The translations under genes and the position numbers were made by a program. Positions 4,029-27,322 of a stretch of 33,184 nucleotides of DNA are shown piece after piece. This stretch comes from a virus (lineage: Duplodnaviria > Caudoviricetes), in the IMG/VR virus record IMGVR_UViG_3300030451_001850, positions 1 through 33,184 of that record. One strand, written 5' to 3'. Each line of letters starts with the position of its first letter. Positions within the stretch are counted from its first letter, which is position 1. Under the pieces are notes generated by a model. That model was not told the origin of the DNA. It worked only from the letters and a program-made list of their open reading frames with translations, and ran no database searches.

Positions 4029-7000
4029 TAATCGTCTTCAATAACACTTTTAGCTGCATCAGGATCCATCTTCCAAGCATTTCGATCCATTCCTAATGTA
4101 AGAAGTAAAGCTCTTGCTTTAGCAATAGTATAACCATCAGGGTCAATTAAATCAGAATCTTTTATAAGGCCTGGGGTCAATGCCATCATTGTATTATTGT
4201 AAAGATTTACAAAACCTTTTAGAAAGTTTTGATCTGACATACCCTCATTCCAACTTCTATATAATGATTTAAGTTTAATACGATCAAGTCCTGGCATGGC
4301 TCTGTATAAAGTTGTGCCAAAGTTGTCATTCTTTAATTGATTCATTGCAATCTGATAGGCTTTGTTCTGAGGGCTATGCTTCCAATCAAAGATAAAATTA
4401 TTAGATAATAAAACTTGTTTACCCCCAGGGTGTTCAACATAAATTCTATATGAAGGTCTATCACCAGCTACTTCATTAGGTACTATTTTAAAACTACGAT
4501 TAGCAAAGGCCTCTTGAGTATCTCTGTCTCTTAATGCTGGCACATTACTAAAATGCTCAAAGATATATTCGTTAACATCTGTTTCAGTAATTTTTGCTAT
4601 ATCATTATCTACTGTTTTTTGAAACTCTGCTACAGGTGGATACATTGTTAAAACAGAAGTTCCATCAGGATTCTTTTTTATGCCAACACTTTCCATAACT
4701 TGAGCCAATGACATTGATATGGCTTGGTTTAATGCTTTGTCCACACCATGATCAATATTAACTTGATCACTCATTAAGTTAAAACGAAATGATTTAAACA
4801 ACTTGTTTCTTAATGTTGGGTTGGAATTGATAGCTTCATAGAAGCCTTGACCTTTTGTAATTTCATTAAATCTTTCAAGGTTAAGTCTTTGTACATCATT
4901 AACTTCTCTTTCTGCTATATCAAAAGGTAGTCTAAATGTATTTTTTAAATACTTAGCCATAAAACCACTTAAACTAAATACATAATCATCACTTAGATTT
5001 TTTAATGTGTTTGTAAATACTTCATCAAGTGTCTGGTTTTTATTTGTAAACATAGATTCTGTTCTTGCCATACTCTTATCTTTTTTCTTTAAATATACTC
5101 TTTCTAATGTTTCCTTTGGTACATTTAAAGTAGAAGCTATATCTAGTAACTCTGTGTCAATATCTTTTAAAATATGATGATCGACATAGGCTTTATCCAT
5201 TCCATAATTTTTTGCAGTAACTACTAATGTTTTATAAAATCTTAAAACTTGCTCATGTTTCTCTGGCTCTAATGTTGCAAAATTTTTCATTGCAGAAATA
5301 ATATTGCCTTCAGGTAAAACAGTTCTATTTTTAATCATATACTGAATACCAGCTATCATGCTTTTCTCTGCTACTTCCATATCAGAGCTAACAATATCTA
5401 AATCTACCTTTTGTCCATTAACAAATACTTTTGTTGGATATAATATATTGTTGCCTAGTTTCTTTTGTGCTGCTTGTTGGTTAGTCGTTGTAGATCCACC
5501 AGCTGTGTTATTATTAAAGCCTTGATTTACCTCTGATACTAAATCTTTATATTGATTGTATTTTTTTGTGTATAAGGTAAGTGCTTCATTATATTGAGTT
5601 TCAGTCATTACAGCAGTTGCTGAATTACCAACTAACCCAGACTTTTTGTATAAATCTTTACTATTCGCAAATACAACAGGTGGTGTTGTAAAAGAAGTTC
5701 CAAACTTCATCTCATCTAGTATAGGTTGCATAGCTTGTGCTTTTTCACTTTTAATAACTGCTATATTGTATTTAACTTTATCACTTACCCATTGCTGATA
5801 AACTCTTTTTGGTAAATTATTTCTATTAGTTTCAAACCATTCATCTACTTCTTTTCTGTCTTCTGTAGTAGTTCCAGGGTTAGAAAGATTAATTAACTTG
5901 AGCATACCATCTTCGCCAAATTTACTCTGTTCAAGTTTTTCTAAACTTTGTCTTCTGCCTGAAATAATTGATTGTAAACTTGCACCATAATTTGTGTTAC
6001 CAAATTTAGCAGTTATTTCCAAAGCAGATGGTAAATCTGATGCATCAGTTTCAGCATATATTTTGTTTATCATTGTAAAATAATCTAATTGTTGTTGCTG
6101 TACATCAGCTGCTTTCTTATCTTTTCTAATTCTTTCATGATAAGTTATTCTTGCATTCATAGCATCAGCAATAACTTTTGTATCTAATCCACTTCCAGTA
6201 AATTGTTTGACTGTATCATCAACCATCTGTCTTTGTTCATGCAAAGGAACCTTGGCAAGTACAGCACTATCGATAGCATTAGAACTTACTCTTGCTTGCA
6301 AGTTTGAATTATAAGCAAAAACAATATTATTATATTCCAAATCTGAAGATACGTTTGCTCTTATAAGCTCAAACACTTCTAGTTTATCTTGAGCTATATT
6401 TTCTAAATCATGTCCACCAAGACCACTTCTTGCATCAGCTTCTTGTTTGTTGAGTGCTTCTAAAAGTTTTGACCCATTCAGTAAATTTTGTTTTCTAACA
6501 CCATCTAAGTGTATAGCACTAGCTTTTCTAGTTGTTCTAGCCCATGCTTCATTTACAGATGGGCCTATAGCACTCCATACTTCTGATGGAAGTTTTGTTT
6601 CTAATGCTTGTACATATTTTTGGCTATCATTAAAAACTGCAAGTTTGTTATTGTCTCCCATCTTGCCTTGATGTGTACTAAAAGAATTATTAGCTGAATC
6701 TAAAGCATCTGTAACTATAGCCGATTTATAACTTGAAATAGCAAATTGTTTGTACCTTTCAAGTGCTTGTCTTTTATTTGCTTGGTTCAGTATTGATGGA
6801 TTAAATTGATCTAATGCAACTTGATCAAGTGGTAGTACTTTTCCATCTTTATCTGTTCTTGCTCCAATAATCTTACCTTGCTTTTCAGCTTCAAGATATG
6901 CTGTCTTAAGTTGTGCTTGATCTACATCTGCTGTAATATTTCCAACAATCTTTGAAAGATTCAATGTAGCATTTGCCATATCTTTGGCACCAGTATCAGC

Positions 7001-10574: not shown

Positions 10575-11414
10575 CTATTTCTTTAACTCTAATTCAAACA
10601 CACCCTCTGGATCAATAAGAACAGAGTTCATCTGCATTTTATTTAAAATAAAATAGCTATCCTTATCGTTGTGATATTGCATGTTTGAAGAAACATCTGC
10701 ACCAATCGCATGTGCTACTGCATCTGCATGATATGCAAAACATTCCACATGTGTGGTACCAGCTGCTCCAGAACCATTAGTTTGTGTTAAACCACCAAAA
10801 GGCATCCACATAAATCCGAGCCATCTTTTAGCAGTCATCCCTGTTGGAAAAGGTAGATCGTTCTCACCAACATATTCTGCTCTAGAGAATTGATCTATTG
10901 CCATGAGTTGTGACCATTGCTCCCAACCAACAACAACGTATCTTCTTCCATCATCAGGAACTTCGTTGTTACCAAACTTCTCCATAAGCTCTAAAGCCCA
11001 TGTTAAAGTAATACCATTTGAAGTTTCATCATGTGCTGATGTTGTTGTTGTCATCTGAGCAAGTATTAACTCATCTGTTTTCCTACCTAATGCATAAGCA
11101 CCAGACTGTTGTGCGACAGTCATCTCATCGTGATTAATTCTTAACTGATCTAGGTCATCAACCCATTCACCAGCAAAGTAATCTTCGACAGTAACTGACA
11201 CATTAGTGTGTGCAAGATTCATAGGAGCTATATTACCATGTCTTGCTTTAGTGGTAGCAAATCCCTTACCGATCTTCTGAAATGTGGTTTTGTTCTTAAC
11301 ACCATTACGAGTTCTTACTGTATTTCTCAGTTTAGAACCCATACGCTGATAAGCCATATGAACCCCAGCTTCAAACTCCTCGATAAAGGAAGTACTAATT
11401 GATGGTGTAGCCAT
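10575..11414 (-). CDS. Major capsid protein
   Basis: FIEEFEAGVHMAYQRMGSKLRNTV, AYALGRKTD, WLGFMW; strong RBS AAAGGAG; follows scaffold. Confidence 0.9.
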   Translation of the reverse strand: MATPSISTSFIEEFEAGVHMAYQRMGSKLRNTVRTRNGVKNKTTFQKIGKGFATTKARHGNIAPMNLAHTNVSVTVEDYFAGEWVDDLDQLRINHDEMTVAQQSGAYALGRKTDELILAQMTTTTSAHDETSNGITLTWALELMEKFGNNEVPDDGRRYVVVGWEQWSQLMAIDQFSRAEYVGENDLPFPTGMTAKRWLGFMWMPFGGLTQTNGSGAAGTTHVECFAYHADAVAHAIGADVSSNMQYHNDKDSYFILNKMQMNSVLIDPEGVFELELKK

Positions 11415-14861: not shown

Positions 14862-15088
14862 TTGTCTGAATCACCCATAAATTTTCTTCTATAACCTCCA
14901 AAGCCTTCCATATCTTCTCCTTGCAAAGATTTAGCTCCAAACAGGTTCGATTTTATTTTTCTCTCTCTGTCTAACCTTTGATCTTCTTGCATCTGTTTTT
15001 CCCTTGCCAGTCTTTCTTGCTCTGCCTTTTTTTGAGCTTCTAGAGCTGGATCTGGTGGTGGTGCTGATGGTGTTCTCAGAAAGCCCAT
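14858..15088 (-). CDS. Small virion-associated protein before portal (76 aa)
   Basis: Start reassigned to MGFLRTPSAPPPDP (RBS GGAG); Pro-rich then coiled coil, as usual for pre-portal genes. Confidence 0.6.
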   Translation of the reverse strand: MGFLRTPSAPPPDPALEAQKKAEQERLAREKQMQEDQRLDRERKIKSNLFGAKSLQGEDMEGFGGYRRKFMGDSDK

Positions 15089-15485
15089 GTTCTTCTCCCT
15101 TTTGTTTAAAAATGACTTGTCCACCTCTTTTTAGCAATTCACAATATAATTGATAAGGTGTAAGTATAAAAATATTTCTAATATTACATAAATGCTTCAT
15201 AAAACTAACACAATACAAGAGTCTTGGGAGCCAGATTGGATAAGATGTAGCTTCATATTCTATACATGTACACTCAGATATCATAAAAGCTATCAATTCA
15301 TTAGCATTTTCGCCTTGTAAGGCAATAAAGTTAAATCCTTGAGTCGTAAATTCAATTTTTATCCATTGATCTAGCTCTGGAAAGTACTGAACAGCAAAAG
15401 CATGACTAAATTTAGGATGTTTTTTAGTAAAAAATTTCCAAAATCCTAAATTTGGACTTTCACAAAAGCAAATTATCCATTTCAT
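14931..15485 (-). CDS. Putative permuted papain-like (NlpC/P60-type) hydrolase
   Basis: His-before-Cys order: FSHAF...YCVSF...TPYQLY. Confidence 0.5.
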   Translation of the reverse strand: MKWIICFCESPNLGFWKFFTKKHPKFSHAFAVQYFPELDQWIKIEFTTQGFNFIALQGENANELIAFMISECTCIEYEATSYPIWLPRLLYCVSFMKHLCNIRNIFILTPYQLYCELLKRGGQVIFKQKGEEHGLSENTISTTTRSSSRSSKKGRARKTGKGKTDARRSKVRQREKNKIEPVWS

Positions 15486-17020
15486 AATGCTCTCAAAGAC
15501 CTTCCTCGTTTTCTACTTCTCATTCTATCAAAGGGATTACTTACCCTCTGGACTATGGTAGGGGTTTTTGGTGTGTTTAGACCAATAACAACCTTTTTCC
15601 CCTCTCCACCCCCAAGAAAAGCGTACTGTAGTGCATCATGTATGTGTGAAAACCTATTCTTCTCTGGTTTATCTTCATACTTTTCATTACCCATATAGTA
15701 AATTCTTTTATATTGATAACCTCCCTCGAAGCCAGAGATAAGATTTGTACATGTTGGGGATATAAGTAAAGACGGATAACCCTCTGACATCCTATTAATA
15801 ACACCTTCTACAGCTTCTATGCGAACTGATATATCATTACTTGGAGCTGGATAAGCAGCTATACCACATGCTCTCATTATCATAAAAGGAGTATGTTCAG
15901 ATGTTTGAGCCATTTGATTGCCAGCTGGATCGCCAATAAACTTATAAGTTAGTTTATCCCATTCATTTTTTGCTATTTCTTTTTTAAGATACTCAGCAAA
16001 ACGTGTAGCTCCCATATCTTTGCCAATAACTTCATGGAAAACAATCCATCGACCAGCATGTATATTCTGACAGAATATGGCACTAGGAGTTCTACCAAAA
16101 TCTAAACCAACAATTACATCTACTTCTTTCTTTGGCTCTAAAGATTCTGTAGCAACATGTGTATCTTTTCTAAATGTAGGATAAACTTGTTTACCATCCA
16201 TGATTGTTTGATATTGATTAAGTACATAAACTTTTACCCAACTTGGGGATTTACCTAATATAATTTTATCATAGTATTCTGATTGTAGATTCTGTCTATT
16301 TTCAGAGTGTGGATTAGATACATAACCAACTAGATTGCCATTCTCATCTTTATTTTCTTTCATTGCACCAGCTTGAGAGAAAAAATTCCAGTCATCAGGT
16401 TTTACCATCAGTAACTTTTCTTCTTGAGTTAGGTACTCAGGTATAGGAACTTCTCCACTTACAATACCCCACCAATGAGATTCATCAGGGCTATTGGTAT
16501 CCATAATAACACCATACCAACTTGGGCCACCCTCTCTCATAGATGGAAAACGACCAACTCTCATTGTGCAAGCATCAACTATACTTTTTGATATTTCTCT
16601 TGCTTCATTAATCCATACACCAGTAAGTTCTAAAGATAATAGCTTTTTGACATCTTCAGATTTATCAAGAGCCAGAAATATGACTTCAAGTTCTACTGTA
16701 GTTTCATCAGGTAGAGCAAAACAAACATTATGAGTATAGGGAGGACTCCAAACAAATCTGCCAAGATCATCACTAAACCAATCTCTCCAAGTTTTGATTG
16801 TTGTTGTTTTAAGTTGAGGATTTGTATTTCTGATAACAGCCCATCGACTTCTTCTTACTTTCTGATCATTAGGTTTCTGCTTAATAGCTTTCCTCATGAT
16901 CTCCATGCAACAAGCAACTGATTTACCACTACCAACTGGCCCTCTGATACCACGAACAAAAGAACCATCTTTCATAAAAGATTTAGCAACGACTCCAGGT
17001 GGTTTGTAGTCTAGATTCAT
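15482..17020 (-). CDS. terL: Terminase large subunit
   Basis: Walker A GPVGSGKS, Walker B VWINE, coupling motif DTN, nuclease GLDFG...HIHDALQY. Confidence 0.95.
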   Translation of the reverse strand: MNLDYKPPGVVAKSFMKDGSFVRGIRGPVGSGKSVACCMEIMRKAIKQKPNDQKVRRSRWAVIRNTNPQLKTTTIKTWRDWFSDDLGRFVWSPPYTHNVCFALPDETTVELEVIFLALDKSEDVKKLLSLELTGVWINEAREISKSIVDACTMRVGRFPSMREGGPSWYGVIMDTNSPDESHWWGIVSGEVPIPEYLTQEEKLLMVKPDDWNFFSQAGAMKENKDENGNLVGYVSNPHSENRQNLQSEYYDKIILGKSPSWVKVYVLNQYQTIMDGKQVYPTFRKDTHVATESLEPKKEVDVIVGLDFGRTPSAIFCQNIHAGRWIVFHEVIGKDMGATRFAEYLKKEIAKNEWDKLTYKFIGDPAGNQMAQTSEHTPFMIMRACGIAAYPAPSNDISVRIEAVEGVINRMSEGYPSLLISPTCTNLISGFEGGYQYKRIYYMGNEKYEDKPEKNRFSHIHDALQYAFLGGGEGKKVVIGLNTPKTPTIVQRVSNPFDRMRSRKRGRSLRAL

Positions 17021-18955: not shown

Positions 18956-18987
18956 TATTAACTTAACTGAAACAAAGGAGCTATATT

Positions 18988-19179
18988 ATGACACAGTTAA
19001 ATTTATTTACATTCAAATCAGTAGAGCCAGAGTCAGACATTGAGAAATTGGCTGGCATGGTTCATGTTGACACAGTTGATATGGACATTATCGACTTGGA
19101 TATACAAACAGCAATCGAGACTGGTGACTACCAAAGGTTGAGCCAGTTGCGTGAAATTAAAAAATCAATTGTAGAATAG
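18988..19179 (+). CDS. Hypothetical acidic early protein
   Basis: 63 aa, RBS AAAGGAG. Confidence 0.75.
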   Translation: MTQLNLFTFKSVEPESDIEKLAGMVHVDTVDMDIIDLDIQTAIETGDYQRLSQLREIKKSIVE

Positions 19180-20375: not shown

Positions 20376-20641
20376 CTGGTTTCATATCAGCATGTGCAAT
20401 ACTCTTTTTACTTGCAAAATTAGGCATGAAAAGAGTTCTAAACTATGACATCATTGTCGATATAGTATCGACTCTGGCTCTCATATTTATGTTTGCTGGC
20501 ACATTTGCTGGCATGATGGCTGGTGTCATAGGTGGTGCAATCATATCCATTGTTCTATTTATTCTAAAGAAAACAATAGGTTATGAGAAGCCAGTAAGAA
20601 AAGGATTCAAAGTGCATTGGGAATATGTTCCACCAAAGTAA
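20357..20641 (+). CDS. Small multi-pass membrane protein
   Basis: 94 aa with about three hydrophobic segments and a basic tail. Confidence 0.75.
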   Translation: MFFYLLAGFISACAILFLLAKLGMKRVLNYDIIVDIVSTLALIFMFAGTFAGMMAGVIGGAIISIVLFILKKTIGYEKPVRKGFKVHWEYVPPK

Positions 20642-20644
20642 CTT

Positions 20645-20878
20645 TGATAGTGTCATGTTTGGGGCAAAACTTCCAAGGCAGTAATGGTTTACAGCCTATC
20701 CCTAGTTTGAGGTCTTGCAAGCTACTCAGATGAGCGAAGTTTAGACACGAATACATCTATATAAGTTGTCATTAAGTATACGTTAGATGTGTAGATGCAG
20801 ATACCAAGTCGACATGGTGGCAAGTCTGCAACAGAGGCTAGACCTGATGCCTCAGCCTAGATATCAATCATGGCATTA
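20645..20878 (+). ncRNA. Candidate ~230-nt multibranch RNA with kissing loops
   Basis: Closing stem 20648-20657/20869-20878, at least six internal helices, complementary loops AGGTCT (20710-20715) and AGACCT (20840-20845). Confidence 0.65.
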
Positions 20879-20916
20879 CCCTTTGGTTTACATTATGTGA
20901 GCCAGAGGGTATTTTT
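20877..20916 (+). terminator. Intrinsic terminator-like hairpin
   Basis: TACCCTTTGGTTTACA-TTA-TGTGAGCCAGAGGGTA (16 bp, 3 G-U) then TTTTT. Confidence 0.75.
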
Positions 20917-20974
20917 ATGAGTGGAGCAGTTGTTGCTCTTAATTTTAATCATACACAACGTAAAGGAGAAAAGT

Positions 20975-21391
20975 ATGAATTTTGCTCAAATCACTATATC
21001 AGGTAATGTTGGTCAAGCACCAGAGATCAAAGAAATCAATGGTACAAAGGTGGCTAACTTTTCTGTAGCAGTCAACGAATCTTACAACACTAAAGCTGGT
21101 GAGAAAGTTGAGAAGACACATTGGTATCCTATCGAAGCATGGGATGGTTCACAAGGCAAAGGTCTTGTATCCAATGTCATTGAGAAGTATCTTACAGTCG
21201 GTACAACAGTACTTGTTCAAGGTATGCCAATGATTGAAACCTATGAAAAAGATGGAGAGAAGCGTAAAGCCTTCAAGATCAAACTTGCTGGTACTGGTTC
21301 TACATTCCGTCTTACTGGTGGAGCTAAGAAAGATTCATCCACAGTCGGTGATGCACCAAAGGTTGAAGACAACGATGAGGTACCATTCTAA
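20975..21391 (+). CDS. ssb: Single-stranded DNA-binding protein
   Basis: GNVGQAPE, VANFSVAVNE, acidic tip DNDEVPF; start reassigned to ATG after AAAGGAG. Confidence 0.93.
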   Translation: MNFAQITISGNVGQAPEIKEINGTKVANFSVAVNESYNTKAGEKVEKTHWYPIEAWDGSQGKGLVSNVIEKYLTVGTTVLVQGMPMIETYEKDGEKRKAFKIKLAGTGSTFRLTGGAKKDSSTVGDAPKVEDNDEVPF

Positions 21392-21412: not shown

Positions 21413-21441
21413 GGGGGTAGTGAAAGCTATCCCCTTTTTTT
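21413..21441 (+). terminator. Intrinsic terminator after ssb
   Basis: GGGGGTAGT-GAAA-GCTATCCCC then T7. Confidence 0.85.
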
Positions 21442-21506
21442 ATGATGAGGGGTGCAATCCTCTTTCATTTCAATCCCCCTCATCGCCACAAATACAGGAG
21501 CATCTT

Positions 21507-22651: not shown

Positions 22652-24217
22652 TTGAAAATACCTTTAAATCAACTCAAGCCTGATCCCAACAATATCAGAA
22701 AGGTGAAGGCTAACAATCTTGATGCACTCATTGCCTCAATACAAAGTCGTGACTTACTACACAACCTTGTTGTCAAAAAGAATGGCACAGGTTACATCAT
22801 TATCGATGGCAACAGAAGATTCAAAGCACTACAGGAAATACATGGTGCAGAATCTATTGAGCCAGTAGAATGTAAAGTCATTGATGAACATGACAGAGAA
22901 GTTGGCTTACATGCTAACATGATGAGAGAAGGCATGCATCCACTTGATGAGTCTGATGTAATCTTCAAACTATGTGAAGATGGATCAGAAGACTTTGATT
23001 CTATTGCCAAACGATTTGGTCAAACTGGTAAGTGGGTACAACAGAGAGTCGCATTGTCTGAACTCATACCAGCAGTCAAGAAAGCATTTCGTAACTGTGA
23101 GATGAATCTTGGTACAGCCTCTTTGTTTACAAGACTAAACAAGACACAACAGTCAGAGTTATTCAAATCATGTGATGGTGACTATGACTATCGTGATATC
23201 AAATGGCAAATTGATAATGCTCAAATCATGAAAGACAAAGTAATTATCCCACCAAACCACAAGCTCTACAAAGATATTGAGTTTGAGGGTGATCTGTTTT
23301 CAGACAGACAGTATGTTGCTAATGTAGATCAACTACAAAAGCTACAAATGGAGTATGTAGAAGACAAGATTGCTTATTGGTCTAAGAGGTTTGAGAAAGT
23401 TCACTACCTTGAAGACACACCAGTCTATGAAGCTACCAACATAGTCAAGCATCTAACTAAAGACTTTGACAAGAAGACTTACAAAGATGCTGATCTACAG
23501 ATTACTGTACACTATGACTGGAGGCGTGGTGAGTTCTACATGCAGAAATGGTTGGACAAACGTAAAGCTAGTGCAGCTGAGATTGAAGCAGTAGAAAATG
23601 GTGAAGTACCAGAACTTACACTTGCTGATATGTCTAATCCACAACACCAAGAGATGATACAAATGCATTTTGGTGCTTTGAGAAATGCTATCTACAATCA
23701 GCACAAACCAGAGCCTCAAGACATGCTTGGTTATTTCTGTGGCAATCTATTTACACCTTACACCAATATATCAGCTGAGTCTGTTATTCCATCTTATGAA
23801 AACAGTTTAGCAGAGCCTAATGATCTCTTTGAAAATGAATTGGCTGACATCAGAACAGAACTATCTGATTGGGTAGAGAAGAATCCTGATCTGCCAAGAG
23901 CCAAGTTCTTTATTGGTAAGGGATATCAATATTGTTGTCGTGCATTGTATGTAAGAGCTATGGTTTCATCTACGGAAGGTGAAGTAAGTCAGATGAATGA
24001 ACTTATGTACAAGGCAAATCTAGAAAACAACTGGTTTCAGCCAGACTACAACTGGATCAAGAAGTACAAGACTACACAGTTATACATGTTATGTAATGAA
24101 CTGAAGATCAAATACTCTGAGAGAGATAAGAAAGGTGATCTTGTAGAAAAGATTGTTGCCTCTATCAGAGATGGTAAGTCTTACGATCCTATTGAGTTAC
24201 TCAAGAATGTGAAGTAA
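22652..24217 (+). CDS. Large ParB/Srx-domain + HTH protein (plasmid YubM/ParB2-like)
   Basis: TTG start after AGGAGG; GNRRFKAL Arg patch, ANMMREGMHPLDE, HTH SIAKRFGQTGKWVQQRVAL, C-terminal WFQP...KKGDL. Confidence 0.85.
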   Translation: MKIPLNQLKPDPNNIRKVKANNLDALIASIQSRDLLHNLVVKKNGTGYIIIDGNRRFKALQEIHGAESIEPVECKVIDEHDREVGLHANMMREGMHPLDESDVIFKLCEDGSEDFDSIAKRFGQTGKWVQQRVALSELIPAVKKAFRNCEMNLGTASLFTRLNKTQQSELFKSCDGDYDYRDIKWQIDNAQIMKDKVIIPPNHKLYKDIEFEGDLFSDRQYVANVDQLQKLQMEYVEDKIAYWSKRFEKVHYLEDTPVYEATNIVKHLTKDFDKKTYKDADLQITVHYDWRRGEFYMQKWLDKRKASAAEIEAVENGEVPELTLADMSNPQHQEMIQMHFGALRNAIYNQHKPEPQDMLGYFCGNLFTPYTNISAESVIPSYENSLAEPNDLFENELADIRTELSDWVEKNPDLPRAKFFIGKGYQYCCRALYVRAMVSSTEGEVSQMNELMYKANLENNWFQPDYNWIKKYKTTQLYMLCNELKIKYSERDKKGDLVEKIVASIRDGKSYDPIELLKNVK

Positions 24218-24219
24218 AA

Positions 24220-24699
24220 CTATTGATACTTGCTGAAGTTCATCCCCCAATAAGCTATGAGGGATGCTTCGGCAAGACCATCATATGTCTTTAACTGCCA
24301 AAGATGAGAGCCTTGTGGCATCAACTCAGATGCTCTTTTACGAGTAGCATCTTTATCACTTGTGCAGTTAAGATCACTTTTCCATTTACGAGGCACAACT
24401 TCTGTGTATGGTAGACCTATTGCCACAAGCATACCAAGATATATTCCATATCCCATGCCTGTTGCAAATGTACTAGCTAAACCTTGTTGTGGCATAGCTT
24501 GTTGTTTTTCTATAAACACATGCTCTGGTTTTTGATCTGCTAAGATACTATTAAGACTCCACATATCTAGAAATCTTTTTTGTTTCTTGCCTATGTTTAC
24601 TCTAAACACAGGTGCTTTCTCAGCTTGAATATACTTTGAGTCTGAATGAATGAAGCTAACTGCTCCATTTAGTCCAGGATCAATGCCACATACTATCAT
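24220..24699 (-). CDS. RuvC-like Holliday junction resolvase
   Basis: GIDPG, VFIEKQ, VPRKWK, DGLAEASLIA. Confidence 0.85.
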   Translation of the reverse strand: MIVCGIDPGLNGAVSFIHSDSKYIQAEKAPVFRVNIGKKQKRFLDMWSLNSILADQKPEHVFIEKQQAMPQQGLASTFATGMGYGIYLGMLVAIGLPYTEVVPRKWKSDLNCTSDKDATRKRASELMPQGSHLWQLKTYDGLAEASLIAYWGMNFSKYQ

Positions 24700-24910
24700 T
24701 ACGAACCTCCAGTTTTAGTTTGCAACCAAGGGCCTCAGCCCAACAATACAAATTAAAAGCTGTTGGCTTTCGATTTCCAGTTTCCCACTTAGCAACTAGA
24801 CCAGTCGCACATCCTATACGATCATCTAGTGCAGCTTGTGGTAGACCTAGCTGGTATCTACGTTTCTTCAACTGAGTAACAAGATCGTCAGCATATCTCT
24901 TTTCAGTCAT
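24680..24910 (-). CDS. XRE/Cro-like HTH regulator
   Basis: LKKRRYQLGLPQAALDDRIG...VAKWETGNRKP...AEALG; RBS GAGGTG. Confidence 0.85.
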   Translation of the reverse strand: MTEKRYADDLVTQLKKRRYQLGLPQAALDDRIGCATGLVAKWETGNRKPTAFNLYCWAEALGCKLKLEVRNDSMWH

Positions 24911-25279: not shown

Positions 25280-26126
25280 CGCTAGAAGAAACTTTATTGG
25301 TTCAAGTGAGGCATCTATCATTGCTAATGGTAGTTACTCATCATGGTATGAACTGATAGAGCAAAAACGCAATAGTCTAGAAAAGATATTTGACAAACAA
25401 ACTAGATTCTTGATGGAAGCTGGTACATTCATGGAACCTTTTGTATTGGAGAAAGGTGAAGAAATAATGAAGATGAAGTTTCGTAATCAACAATCTGGCA
25501 AGACAGTCGATCATGGCATTGCACCAATACACTCAACCTATGATGCAATTGCAGCTGATGGTAGACCAGTAGAAGCTAAGACACATTGGCAGTTCAGAAA
25601 CATGGATGAGCTATGTGATCTGTATGCACCACAATGTCAGCATCATATTCACACATCAGCTAAAGATGGTTGCTATCTTGTTGTGTTCTTTGGTGTCAGA
25701 TGTAACTTGGAATACAGATACATTCAAAGAGATCAAGCATGGATTGATTCCTATCTTGAGCAATGTGTCAAGTTTTGGTCATGGTATCGTGATGGCGTAG
25801 AGCCAGAGGGATTTGAATTGTTACCACCAGTTGACTGGTCAGATATGGTGACTATGGATATGTCAGACTTACCTGTTTGGGATGAGAAGATGGAGCATGA
25901 GATGAGAGTCAATGCAAGTGACATCATTGAATCAAAGCAAGCCATCGACATTGCAGACGAAGCTAAGTCTGTATTCAAACATTACATGCCAGACAATTGT
26001 CGTAAGATGACATTTGACATTGGTGGTAATCACAAAGGTCATAAGATTGTGATGACTAGATCAAAGACTACTAAAGCAATCACATTGAAACACACTTACC
26101 CAAAAGGAGAGAAAGATGGGAACTAA
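25254..26126 (+). CDS. YqaJ/lambda-exonuclease-like nuclease
   Basis: RRNFIGSSE, G..ME, STYDA, EAKT, YAPQCQH. Confidence 0.85.
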   Translation: MVLSQQQLNARRNFIGSSEASIIANGSYSSWYELIEQKRNSLEKIFDKQTRFLMEAGTFMEPFVLEKGEEIMKMKFRNQQSGKTVDHGIAPIHSTYDAIAADGRPVEAKTHWQFRNMDELCDLYAPQCQHHIHTSAKDGCYLVVFFGVRCNLEYRYIQRDQAWIDSYLEQCVKFWSWYRDGVEPEGFELLPPVDWSDMVTMDMSDLPVWDEKMEHEMRVNASDIIESKQAIDIADEAKSVFKHYMPDNCRKMTFDIGGNHKGHKIVMTRSKTTKAITLKHTYPKGEKDGN

Positions 26127-26778
26127 GAAAAACGTATATGAAACACTAGCAAAGGTAGATGTTTCTAAACATGTAGAGAAGAAAGGCGATGCCTCATACC
26201 TTTCATGGTCATGGGCTTGGGCTTTTGTAAAGAAAGAGTTTGATGATGCAACATTCGTCAAGCATACATTTACAGACAATCAAAACAATGTCTTGCCTTT
26301 CATGAGAGATTACAAAGGTAATACATATGTCCAGGTATCTGTGACAATACAAGGTCAGACAATTACTGAGGTCTTTCCTGTCATGGATAACTACATGCAA
26401 GCTATCAATTCAGAAGCAAACACTAAGTTTGGCAAGAAGAAAAGAGATGGTCAATCAAGAATACCAGACTCAACTGATGTCAACAATGCTCATCAGAGGG
26501 CATTGACTAAGTGTCTTGCATACTTTGGTCTTGGCTTGAACGTCTATGCTGGTGAAGATATACCTCTCAACGATGTATTCTTCAATGATGATTCATCTAA
26601 TCAAGAAGCAGATGTTATCAAAAAGATATTCTCAGAATGTAAAGATGAGAAGTCACTCAAGGATGCATGGCACGGAAACAGTACTAAAATCAATAAGTTA
26701 TCGCAGACTTTTGTCATATCAGTTCAAGATCATTACAAATCTTGTTTATCAAAACTGAAGGTAAAGAAAGCTAACTAA
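26116..26778 (+). CDS. Sak/DUF1071 (Rad52-like) single-strand annealing protein
   Basis: YLSWSWAW, PVMDN, DVNNAHQRALTKCLAYFGLGLNVYAGED. Confidence 0.88.
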   Translation: MGTKKNVYETLAKVDVSKHVEKKGDASYLSWSWAWAFVKKEFDDATFVKHTFTDNQNNVLPFMRDYKGNTYVQVSVTIQGQTITEVFPVMDNYMQAINSEANTKFGKKKRDGQSRIPDSTDVNNAHQRALTKCLAYFGLGLNVYAGEDIPLNDVFFNDDSSNQEADVIKKIFSECKDEKSLKDAWHGNSTKINKLSQTFVISVQDHYKSCLSKLKVKKAN

Positions 26779-26781
26779 TAC

Positions 26782-26852
26782 AAAAAGACTAGAGGCGAGG
26801 AGCTATCACCACCTCTAGTCTTCCCCCTACCACAGCCCTTTCAGGCAAGTGA
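26782..26852 (-). ncRNA. Candidate antisense sRNA with anti-SD loop
   Basis: Upstream promoter, GCCU-GAAA-GGGC hairpin, terminator stem with loop GUGAUAGCUCCU and U5 tail. Confidence 0.55.
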
Positions 26853-26858
26853 ATTTAT

Positions 26859-26887
26859 ATCATATAAAAAATTTATTTAAATTACAA
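26859..26887 (-). promoter_or_regulatory. Promoter for the candidate sRNA
   Basis: TTGTAA-N17-TATGAT; region is very AT-rich, so chance is not excluded. Confidence 0.55.
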
Positions 26888-26904: not shown

Positions 26905-27180
26905 ATGAAAAGAAATGAAATACTAAACCAAGCAAAAGAAACTTTACTGCAACGACAGACAGTACATGGTGATCCACACAAGACATTTACAATACTTGCA
27001 GAGATGTGGAATGTTACACCATATCAAGTTGCTATGATGCTTGCTGAACTAAAGATGATCAGAGCCAGAGCAAATCCAGCTAACGATGATAACTATCTAG
27101 ATGCAATAGGATACATTGCTCTAGCCTATGAACTAAAACATAACCAAAAAGAAGCTATGGTAGGAGGAAAGAATGATTGA
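26905..27180 (+). CDS. DUF6378-like protein (possible nucleotide-modifying family)
   Basis: RQTVHGDP...IL..MW...KMIR...DDNYLDAIGYIAL. Confidence 0.75.
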   Translation: MKRNEILNQAKETLLQRQTVHGDPHKTFTILAEMWNVTPYQVAMMLAELKMIRARANPANDDNYLDAIGYIALAYELKHNQKEAMVGGKND

Positions 27181-27322
27181 GCTTTTATTAGAAAAAGGTG
27201 ATGTAAAATTAATAATGGCAACGTTAGTTGTGTTGCTAGATATGGATTACATCAAGGAACCAGAGATGATTAAGAAATATAAAAAATTATTAAAGAAGTT
27301 AAAAGAAACGACAAATCTTTAG
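27173..27322 (+). CDS. Small hypothetical protein (49 aa)
   Basis: Manual ORF MIELLLEKGDVKLIMATLVVLLDMDY... after AGGAGG. Confidence 0.65.
   Translation: MIELLLEKGDVKLIMATLVVLLDMDYIKEPEMIKKYKKLLKKLKETTNL

Follow-up and report, generated by a model that had tools for sequence, protein, structure and literature searches.

A conserved predicted small-RNA gene family in marine podophages whose guide co-varies with a site in the terminase gene

Judged from alignments of related genomes, the element described here belongs to a conserved predicted small-RNA gene family, absent from Rfam, in a clade of marine podophages, and its guide co-varies with a site in terL, the gene for the terminase large subunit, with compensatory changes inside the coding gene. 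We read the product as a trans-acting antisense RNA resembling c4 and CI that pairs with terL mRNA and likely represses terL and the genes behind it, a reading to which we give a probability of about 0.6. The pairing taken by itself is very probable, and its effect, should the two RNAs pair, would probably be negative. Trans-acting phage small RNAs with phage targets are known from a few enterobacterial temperate phages; new here is an RNA family whose target is legible from genomes alone, together with a lineage that is its natural knockout and with numerous variants of specificity, which makes RNA control of DNA packaging open to direct test in marine podophages without polymerases of their own. 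A literature search that joined terminase or terL with antisense or small RNA found no paper under those terms, and other literature searches brought up none on this RNA family.

The window, by which we mean the whole stretch of DNA analysed, is an entire virus record of 33,184 bases (completeness 93%, G+C 36%) and represents a podophage with T7-like virion genes that is a member of this marine clade. The minus strand carries the late genes (terS, terL, portal, capsid, tail and lysis), and the plus-strand early genes, of which gene 18988 is the first after terS, include ssb, DUF2958, a ParB-like protein, a YqaJ nuclease, Sak and DUF6378. Among the genes of this 93% complete genome there was no polymerase or integrase match. 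Among cultured phages Pelagibacter phage Hodr is the nearest relative (TerL 55%, capsid protein 46%), the other close one by TerL and capsid protein being Methylophilales phage MEP301; neither has a covariance-model match for the RNA family, and a DNA search found no homologue in cultured phages. MEP301 is described as being without polymerases, and the term 'small RNA' does not occur, in the available part of PMC8024684. Searches of GTDB gave no prophage relative: none of 45 candidates by TerL, and by SSB one 2-kb contig besides 42 distant matches.

Some further features of the clade's gene content were seen. The ParB-like protein (22652-24217, 521 aa) has ParB_N and HTH_ParB domains, no ParA being seen, and its gene lies near ssb and DUF2958, a set of the kind found in plasmid leading regions. 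In the 38-kb relative G008, sak is followed by a gene for a tyrosine integrase, and there is also a gene of S24-type repressor-like character (L159:14026-15042 and L159:17084-17674); 38-kb G012 has the same integrase and S24 repressor-like clusters, and several other members keep a short protein that clusters with an S24-type repressor-like protein. Temperate and non-integrating phages may thus occur side by side in the clade. A tRNA gene occupies 5044-5116 of the related locus L025.

The RNA gene sits between sak and DUF6378, in a gap of 126 bases, and its parts are as follows.

26116-26778, plus strand: sak, the single-strand annealing gene (Pfam SSAP_Sak), used as anchor for the homologue search; it is closely followed by the RNA gene, in antisense orientation.
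26859-26887, minus strand: predicted sigma-70-type promoter (-35 TTGTAA at 26887-26882, 17 nt, -10 TATGAT at 26864-26859).
26782-26852, minus strand: predicted small RNA of about 70-71 nt, its start inferred to within 2 nt, supported by fold (z -4.2), family alignment and covariation.
26843-26850, minus strand: 5' arm of the first hairpin, ACUUGCCU, predicted to form a second helix with the target by pairing GGGUAAGU just 3' of the terL core site.
26822-26838, minus strand: conserved G-rich guide GGGCUGUGGUAGGGGGA, comprising the hairpin 3' arm and a single-stranded linker with the predicted toehold UAGGG; it co-varies with the targets.
26782-26820, minus strand: intrinsic terminator hairpin and U5 (arms 26820-26810 and 26797-26787, 12-nt loop, U5 at 26786-26782), the loop sequence being variable among homologues.

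The RNA (26852-26782) is flanked by the sak stop (26778) on one side and the next RBS (about 26895) on the other, and overlaps no gene or RBS; it is antisense to the Sak operon, and the 1.9 kb downstream on its own strand are antisense sequence only. The first-pass annotation of this DNA had reported here, on the minus strand, a promoter TTGTAA-N17-TATGAT, a GCCU-GAAA-GGGC hairpin and a terminator stem with U5, all of which are present (the promoter at 26887-26859). Folding energies are -33.5 kcal/mol for 76 nt of the minus strand, with a z of -4.2 and none of 200 shuffles as good, versus -26.3 for the plus strand. In the folding model the linker is unpaired at about 0.9. The promoter taken alone is unremarkable (49 such sites found versus 67 expected) and becomes significant because it recurs across homologues, a promoter-like TTG..TAnnnT standing at the right distance in 23 of 36 non-redundant members (shuffled mean 2.0, maximum 5). 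Rfam gave a single chance match in the window, to mir-627 (E 0.28), and no relevant family in seven homologue loci (one tRNA and one chance snoRNA match). Three metatranscriptome contig sets have next to no cover here and no listed piece over the RNA, a kind of data in which small RNAs cannot show.

Alignment of Sak gave 80 loci, and the RNA architecture was found at 66 of these, 61 by motif search (a spurious one, L067, having been dropped) and five more with a covariance model; six of the 14 loci without a match end within 1.6 kb of sak. In all members the RNA is antisense to the Sak operon, the guide lying about 60 to 2,550 bases past the sak stop; its position varies, and in several relatives the RNA runs over a gene end. 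The RNA strand was the more stable, and the 5' hairpin formed, in 36 of 36 homologues; the structure covariation score was 0.444 versus 0.301 (0 of 500 shuffles). The terminator has double-sided changes at seven of eight counted pairs, and the first-hairpin pairs change on one side only, their 3' arm and the linker holding the invariant columns GGC.GU.GU...G across 29 sequences. Five near-identical phages share the same 70 bases, and loci L003-L005 keep both promoter boxes intact around a changed spacer, with homology stopping right at the -35. In these three loci (L003 5325-5511, L004, L005) and in one metatranscriptome contig, a 56-codon gene is inserted exactly between the RNA's -35 and DUF6378. 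A degenerate pattern scan of viral contigs returned 57 stretches; the RNA family seems confined to this clade, because those outside it are, by eye, unrelated Gly-codon matches without promoter or terminator. No protein family was limited to RNA-bearing genomes, and no co-distributed partner protein was found. The searched tables of PMC10690425, one of which holds no sequences, contained no motif match, and the family may be among the unnamed candidates of that study.

The predicted main target lies about 11 kb from the RNA gene, within terL:

15482-17020, minus strand: terL, terminase large subunit (PHROG E 2e-24), which carries the main predicted site and whose stop overlaps the start of gene 14931-15485.
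15539-15564, minus strand: main predicted target, with core CCCCUACCAUAGUCC, 3 nt, then GGGUAAGU, on the mRNA strand of the terL coding sequence about 23-24 codons before the stop.

The overlap of the terL stop with the next start is an ATGA in 24 of the 24 genomes shown. Gene 14931 was tried as a YiiX/YebB-like hydrolase, a lead (0.78) that we rejected as too weak, and it has no name in the ESM Atlas.

For the RNA's 5' half, terL 15564-15539 is the best duplex in the genome (-42.2, versus -25 to -32 for 12 shuffled guides). We took thirty related records whole, syntenic and with TerL mostly 72-98% identical, and the genome's own guide was best or tied-best at the terL site in 18 of 18 genomes that have both parts. 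New loci anchored on another gene included 12 with a model match and a complete terL end; one (L365) was left out for its incomplete RNA, the remaining 11 all matched, and seven of these 11 were new distinct guide/site pairs. The terL site is at the same position in 22 of 22 genomes, and with the site fixed by protein motif, not chosen by complementarity, guide positions 4-13 are Watson-Crick paired at 216 of 220 cells over these 22 genomes, against a permuted mean of 168 and maximum of 198 (20,000 trials, which ignore relatedness). Because the permutations ignore relatedness, we also read paired changes between sister lineages on the TerL tree. Between this phage and its relative L322, a U:A pair becomes G:U at an Ile codon and the change is synonymous; L385 and L396 differ by U:A versus C:G on the target side of a Thr codon, again synonymously; a His/Tyr change between G026 and G009 is matched in the guide; a Thr/Ile change between G015 and the L232 group is paired between guide and site; and G006 differs from the G007 group by three matched changes. 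The wobble pairs at terL are confounded in that 36 of 39 fall on a conserved Val codon; the three internal non-Watson-Crick positions are all G-U. Since the 5' half is complementary to a fixed terL site and co-varies with it, pairing is predicted in trans, and in a stretch encoding the terminase C-terminus the choice of codons and residues would follow an RNA partner.

In G002, G016, G024 and G028 (L146-147, L174-175, L190-191, L198) the RNA has been removed by a deletion of about 95 bases and the terL site is absent too, the genes being otherwise the same as in the RNA-bearing sister G015; the four genomes form one nested clade (support 93/84), so the joint loss counts as one event. The RNA is independently absent from G019, which retains a partial terL site (9 WC + 1 GU), and the record of G023 ends before the RNA position. 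These losses bear on the idea that the shared motif is the operator of a DNA-binding protein with drifting specificity and the hairpin a mere terminator of late read-through, for which it is well placed here. The phage does have an HTH gene and the sites occur in both orientations, yet the HTH gene is retained where the sites vanish exactly with the cassette deletion, guide and 5' arm co-vary as a hairpin, the arm co-varies in turn with the target's downstream flank, and the promoter keeps a fixed distance; we therefore regard an operator as very improbable.

Beyond the core, a second helix is predicted between the 5' arm of the hairpin and a G-rich stretch a few bases downstream, with p<0.05 at 7 of 15 terL sites and at 5 of 5 sites after ssb that cover a Shine–Dalgarno (SD) sequence; cognate arm/target energy is better than that of permuted arms (109 of 20,000). 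At the post-ssb sites of G006, G007, G013, G014 and G029 the predicted duplex covers SD and start codon, as it likewise does at two post-ParB sites. Two further sites are predicted in the window:

27144-27170, minus strand: second site of complementarity, in the predicted trailer of late read-through about 310 nt before the guide on the same strand, with the second-best duplex (-37.7).
21474-21500, plus strand: weak candidate in the gene 21507 leader, behind ssb (cofold gain -10.8; duplex -25.2, within the shuffled range).

On the plus strand, 27144-27170 overlaps the RBS of ORF 27173-27322. In L322 the two best sites are at the same two places as here, its flanking site having a different sequence. 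A flanking site lies 60-680 nt downstream in G004, G007, G008, G012, G013, G014, G021 and G029, directly following the RNA terminator in G004; none was found in the GGCGGUUGUAU group. The gene 21507 leader is placed where relatives have strong SD-covering sites, and whether it is a target here is uncertain: the first-pass annotation had proposed a match before this gene, and the leader does pair moderately (the cofold gain above), through the G-rich guide and not the terminator loop that it had named. As a separate observation, positions 21413-21500 hold two hairpins after ssb, with an inverted pair ATGAGGGG / CCCCTCAT in the gene 21507 leader, and inverted guide-like pairs occur in similar leaders of L076, G008 and G012, which suggests that the leader is switchable.

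That loop was the centre of the earlier proposal, in which it serves as an anti-SD seed blocking gene 18988 and other RBSs:

18976-18984, plus strand: RBS of gene 18988, the target first proposed, here rejected.

The perfect 9-nt complement, AGGAGCTAT, is indeed present at 18976-18984 and is kept in the near-identical L002. It is weak evidence, since a second copy of the 9-nt match lies at 11223, in antisense to the capsid gene, AGGAG stands in 13 of 55 RBS windows, and the chance that a random loop with CUCCU at its end finds a 9-nt match in some RBS is P=0.08. The loop seed was found in 2 of 25 genomes, both with identical RNA. Loop and RBS are uncorrelated among homologues, an outcome that the annotation itself had named as speaking against it, for the complement shrinks to 3-4 nt in five other genomes with a gene 18988 homologue, and L322 (TerL 84%, the closest non-identical relative) keeps AGGAGC before its homologue beside an unrelated loop. 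With gene 18988 the cofold gain is -0.5 kcal/mol and the loop is unused. We consider the anti-SD loop extremely improbable; its pairing at 18988 may be a lineage-specific side interaction. What survives of the proposal is a self-contained minus-strand gene whose RNA likely pairs in trans, without the loop seed or the gene 18988 target, and a turning down of early translation, in so far as occlusion of early-gene RBSs is predicted in relatives through the 5' half of the RNA instead of the loop.

Genome-wide, the 18 genomes contain 33 perfect and 12 wobble 11-nt sites for their own core, versus 0 and 4 in 62 non-cognate pairs, one G014 site being counted twice among the 45 owing to contig overlap. 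By a crude gene caller, 31 of the 45 are sense and 14 antisense to the nearest ORF. Of the antisense sites, about eight share the strand of the RNA gene and are no more than 700 bases away from it, and these may most naturally be read as sites on read-through RNA akin to seqA and seqC of P4. Matches also stand opposite virion-protein mRNAs (oriented coordinates: G006 14454, G007 5835, G008 12814, G013 19296, G014 16429), often 600-2,100 bases from a sense-strand site; since they lie opposite the mRNA strand, mRNA pairing does not explain them unless there are antisense transcripts. This presence of sites on both strands would fit an RNA that recognizes them as DNA, through an R-loop or as guide for a protein such as Sak or the ParB-like protein, the sites then marking genome places for replication, recombination, packaging or transcription control. 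So would the location of the RNA gene behind the Sak/YqaJ recombination operon in all members, and a weak Rho_N-like match near the C-terminus of the ParB-like protein (E 0.005, below the cut-off). We nevertheless think DNA-level action quite unlikely: no protein family is confined to RNA-bearing genomes, the RNA-less lineage has lost only about 95 nt, the flanks of the sites have no conserved motif beyond further complementarity, and the mRNA strand carries the best conserved sites, some exactly over SD and AUG.

Under the preferred reading of pairing with mRNA, the duplex would be nucleated by the unpaired UAGGG linker at the target's C-run; the 5' hairpin would then open, and with both arms paired the duplex would reach about 23 bp, interrupted by a small internal loop. 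Over the SD and AUG of the relatives' early genes such a duplex would block initiation; inside terL it would likely lead to cleavage (RNase III or E) or to premature termination like that of P4 CI, lowering the output of terminase and of the coupled gene 14931. For late read-through, the site beside the RNA gene would be a decoy or stop signal on the same strand, like seqA and seqC. Late genes with promoters of their own (portal, capsid and tail-fibre units) would be less affected by pairing at terL, such promoters being suggested by conserved TGTGAAT boxes.

These boxes, TGTGAAT[TA], occur on the minus strand at 15143, 11572 and 844 of the window and at the same places in relatives. The box stands at a fixed distance before the gene upstream of portal, in 14 of 14 relatives scanned and at the corresponding place here, and likewise before the capsid gene and before the tail-fibre unit; it often precedes terS as well, and there abuts a TTGACA..TATACT promoter. 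It is likely a late-promoter activator or operator site, and the HTH protein at 24680-24910 perhaps binds it. Two other motifs were noted on the early side. The non-coding stretch before ssb (20641-20975) holds a motif, GAGGCTAGACCTGATG, that is found in L028 at the same place and is followed by a terminator (20877-20911), making a second structured RNA possible. In G005, G010, G011, G018, G027 and G030, TTCAC is repeated about 11 bases apart around the RBS of a DUF3846 gene, some of the repeats forming TGTGA..TCACA, a possible regulator site.

The same pairing might instead have a positive or processing role, shielding a C-rich stretch from Rho or nuclease, or cutting late mRNA into units so that the downstream genes are expressed apart from terL. 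The covariation data fit this equally. Rho loading sites are C-rich, as are the predicted sites; those in terL and the virion-protein genes lie upstream of TGTGAAT boxes resembling internal late promoters, and at early sites the C-rich stretch can, by eye, pair with the SD itself, so that binding might open it. Against this, the duplex covers SD and start codon at five of five post-ssb and at two post-ParB sites, an arrangement that normally blocks initiation, and the lineage without RNA and site keeps the same genes, which argues that there is no essential activating step. We judge a positive or processing role unlikely, and repression by pairing remains our reading.

Its biological role is the least certain part: the RNA could tune the late programme or block a superinfecting phage of the same type. 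Lytic-phase tuning fits better than lysogen immunity, because the late-gene box abuts the RNA's -35 in 6 of 36 homologues by eye, G008 and G012 included. We also put forward, tentatively and with more doubt than belief, that each phage's RNA silences terminase, core-virion and chosen early genes bearing its own 11-13 nt tag, as an identity code, at least nine tag variants having been seen. Were this so, a resident phage would block packaging by superinfecting phages with the same tag, and relatives would escape by rewriting guide and tags together or by deleting both; the carriers would be abundant, mostly integrase-less marine phages, and the code possibly a new kind of phage–phage exclusion.

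Among known phage RNAs, lambda OOP and P22 sar are of comparable length (68-77 nt), OOP having its own promoter and acting via RNase III, and STnc6030 of BTP1 targets a late structural gene and brings about superinfection exclusion; the available portion of PMC12197685, from which these points come, lists OOP and STnc6030 as cis-encoded and overlapping their target, in contrast to the RNA here, which is intergenic with several imperfect targets elsewhere. P4 CI arises by processing of a longer, untranslated transcript and regulates the operon in which it lies, pairing at seqA and seqC leading to premature termination (PMC4825925, in the part available). The present RNA resembles CI in having a same-strand complementary flanking site, at 27170-27144 and in eight relatives, and differs in that there is usually one such site, the best target is a distant late gene, and the RNA looks like a primary transcript, as the conserved promoter directly before the hairpin suggests. 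The c4 RNA is cut from its precursor by RNase P. Model RF01695 for C4 gave no match at E<=1 in the genome, and no antirepressor family was found among the neighbouring genes scanned. In the part of PMC2864571 available, c4 motifs are only listed; in that of PMC12197685, sequence-specific pairing of c4 underlies P1–P7 heteroimmunity and blocks translation near the RBS. The main target here is inside terL 11 kb off and not an antirepressor mRNA, and the RNA has its own promoter and terminator; unlike both C4 and P4 CI, it does not lie in the same-strand leader of an antirepressor or replication operon. By these comparisons the RNA would work like P1/P7 c4 and P4 CI and yet be a member of neither, given the missing model match, the missing antirepressor operon and the separate promoter. 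With c4 it shares the character of a small structured phage RNA predicted to pair in trans with its own phage's mRNA (PMC12197685, same portion), and, as with c4, guide and targets differ between relatives in matched sets.
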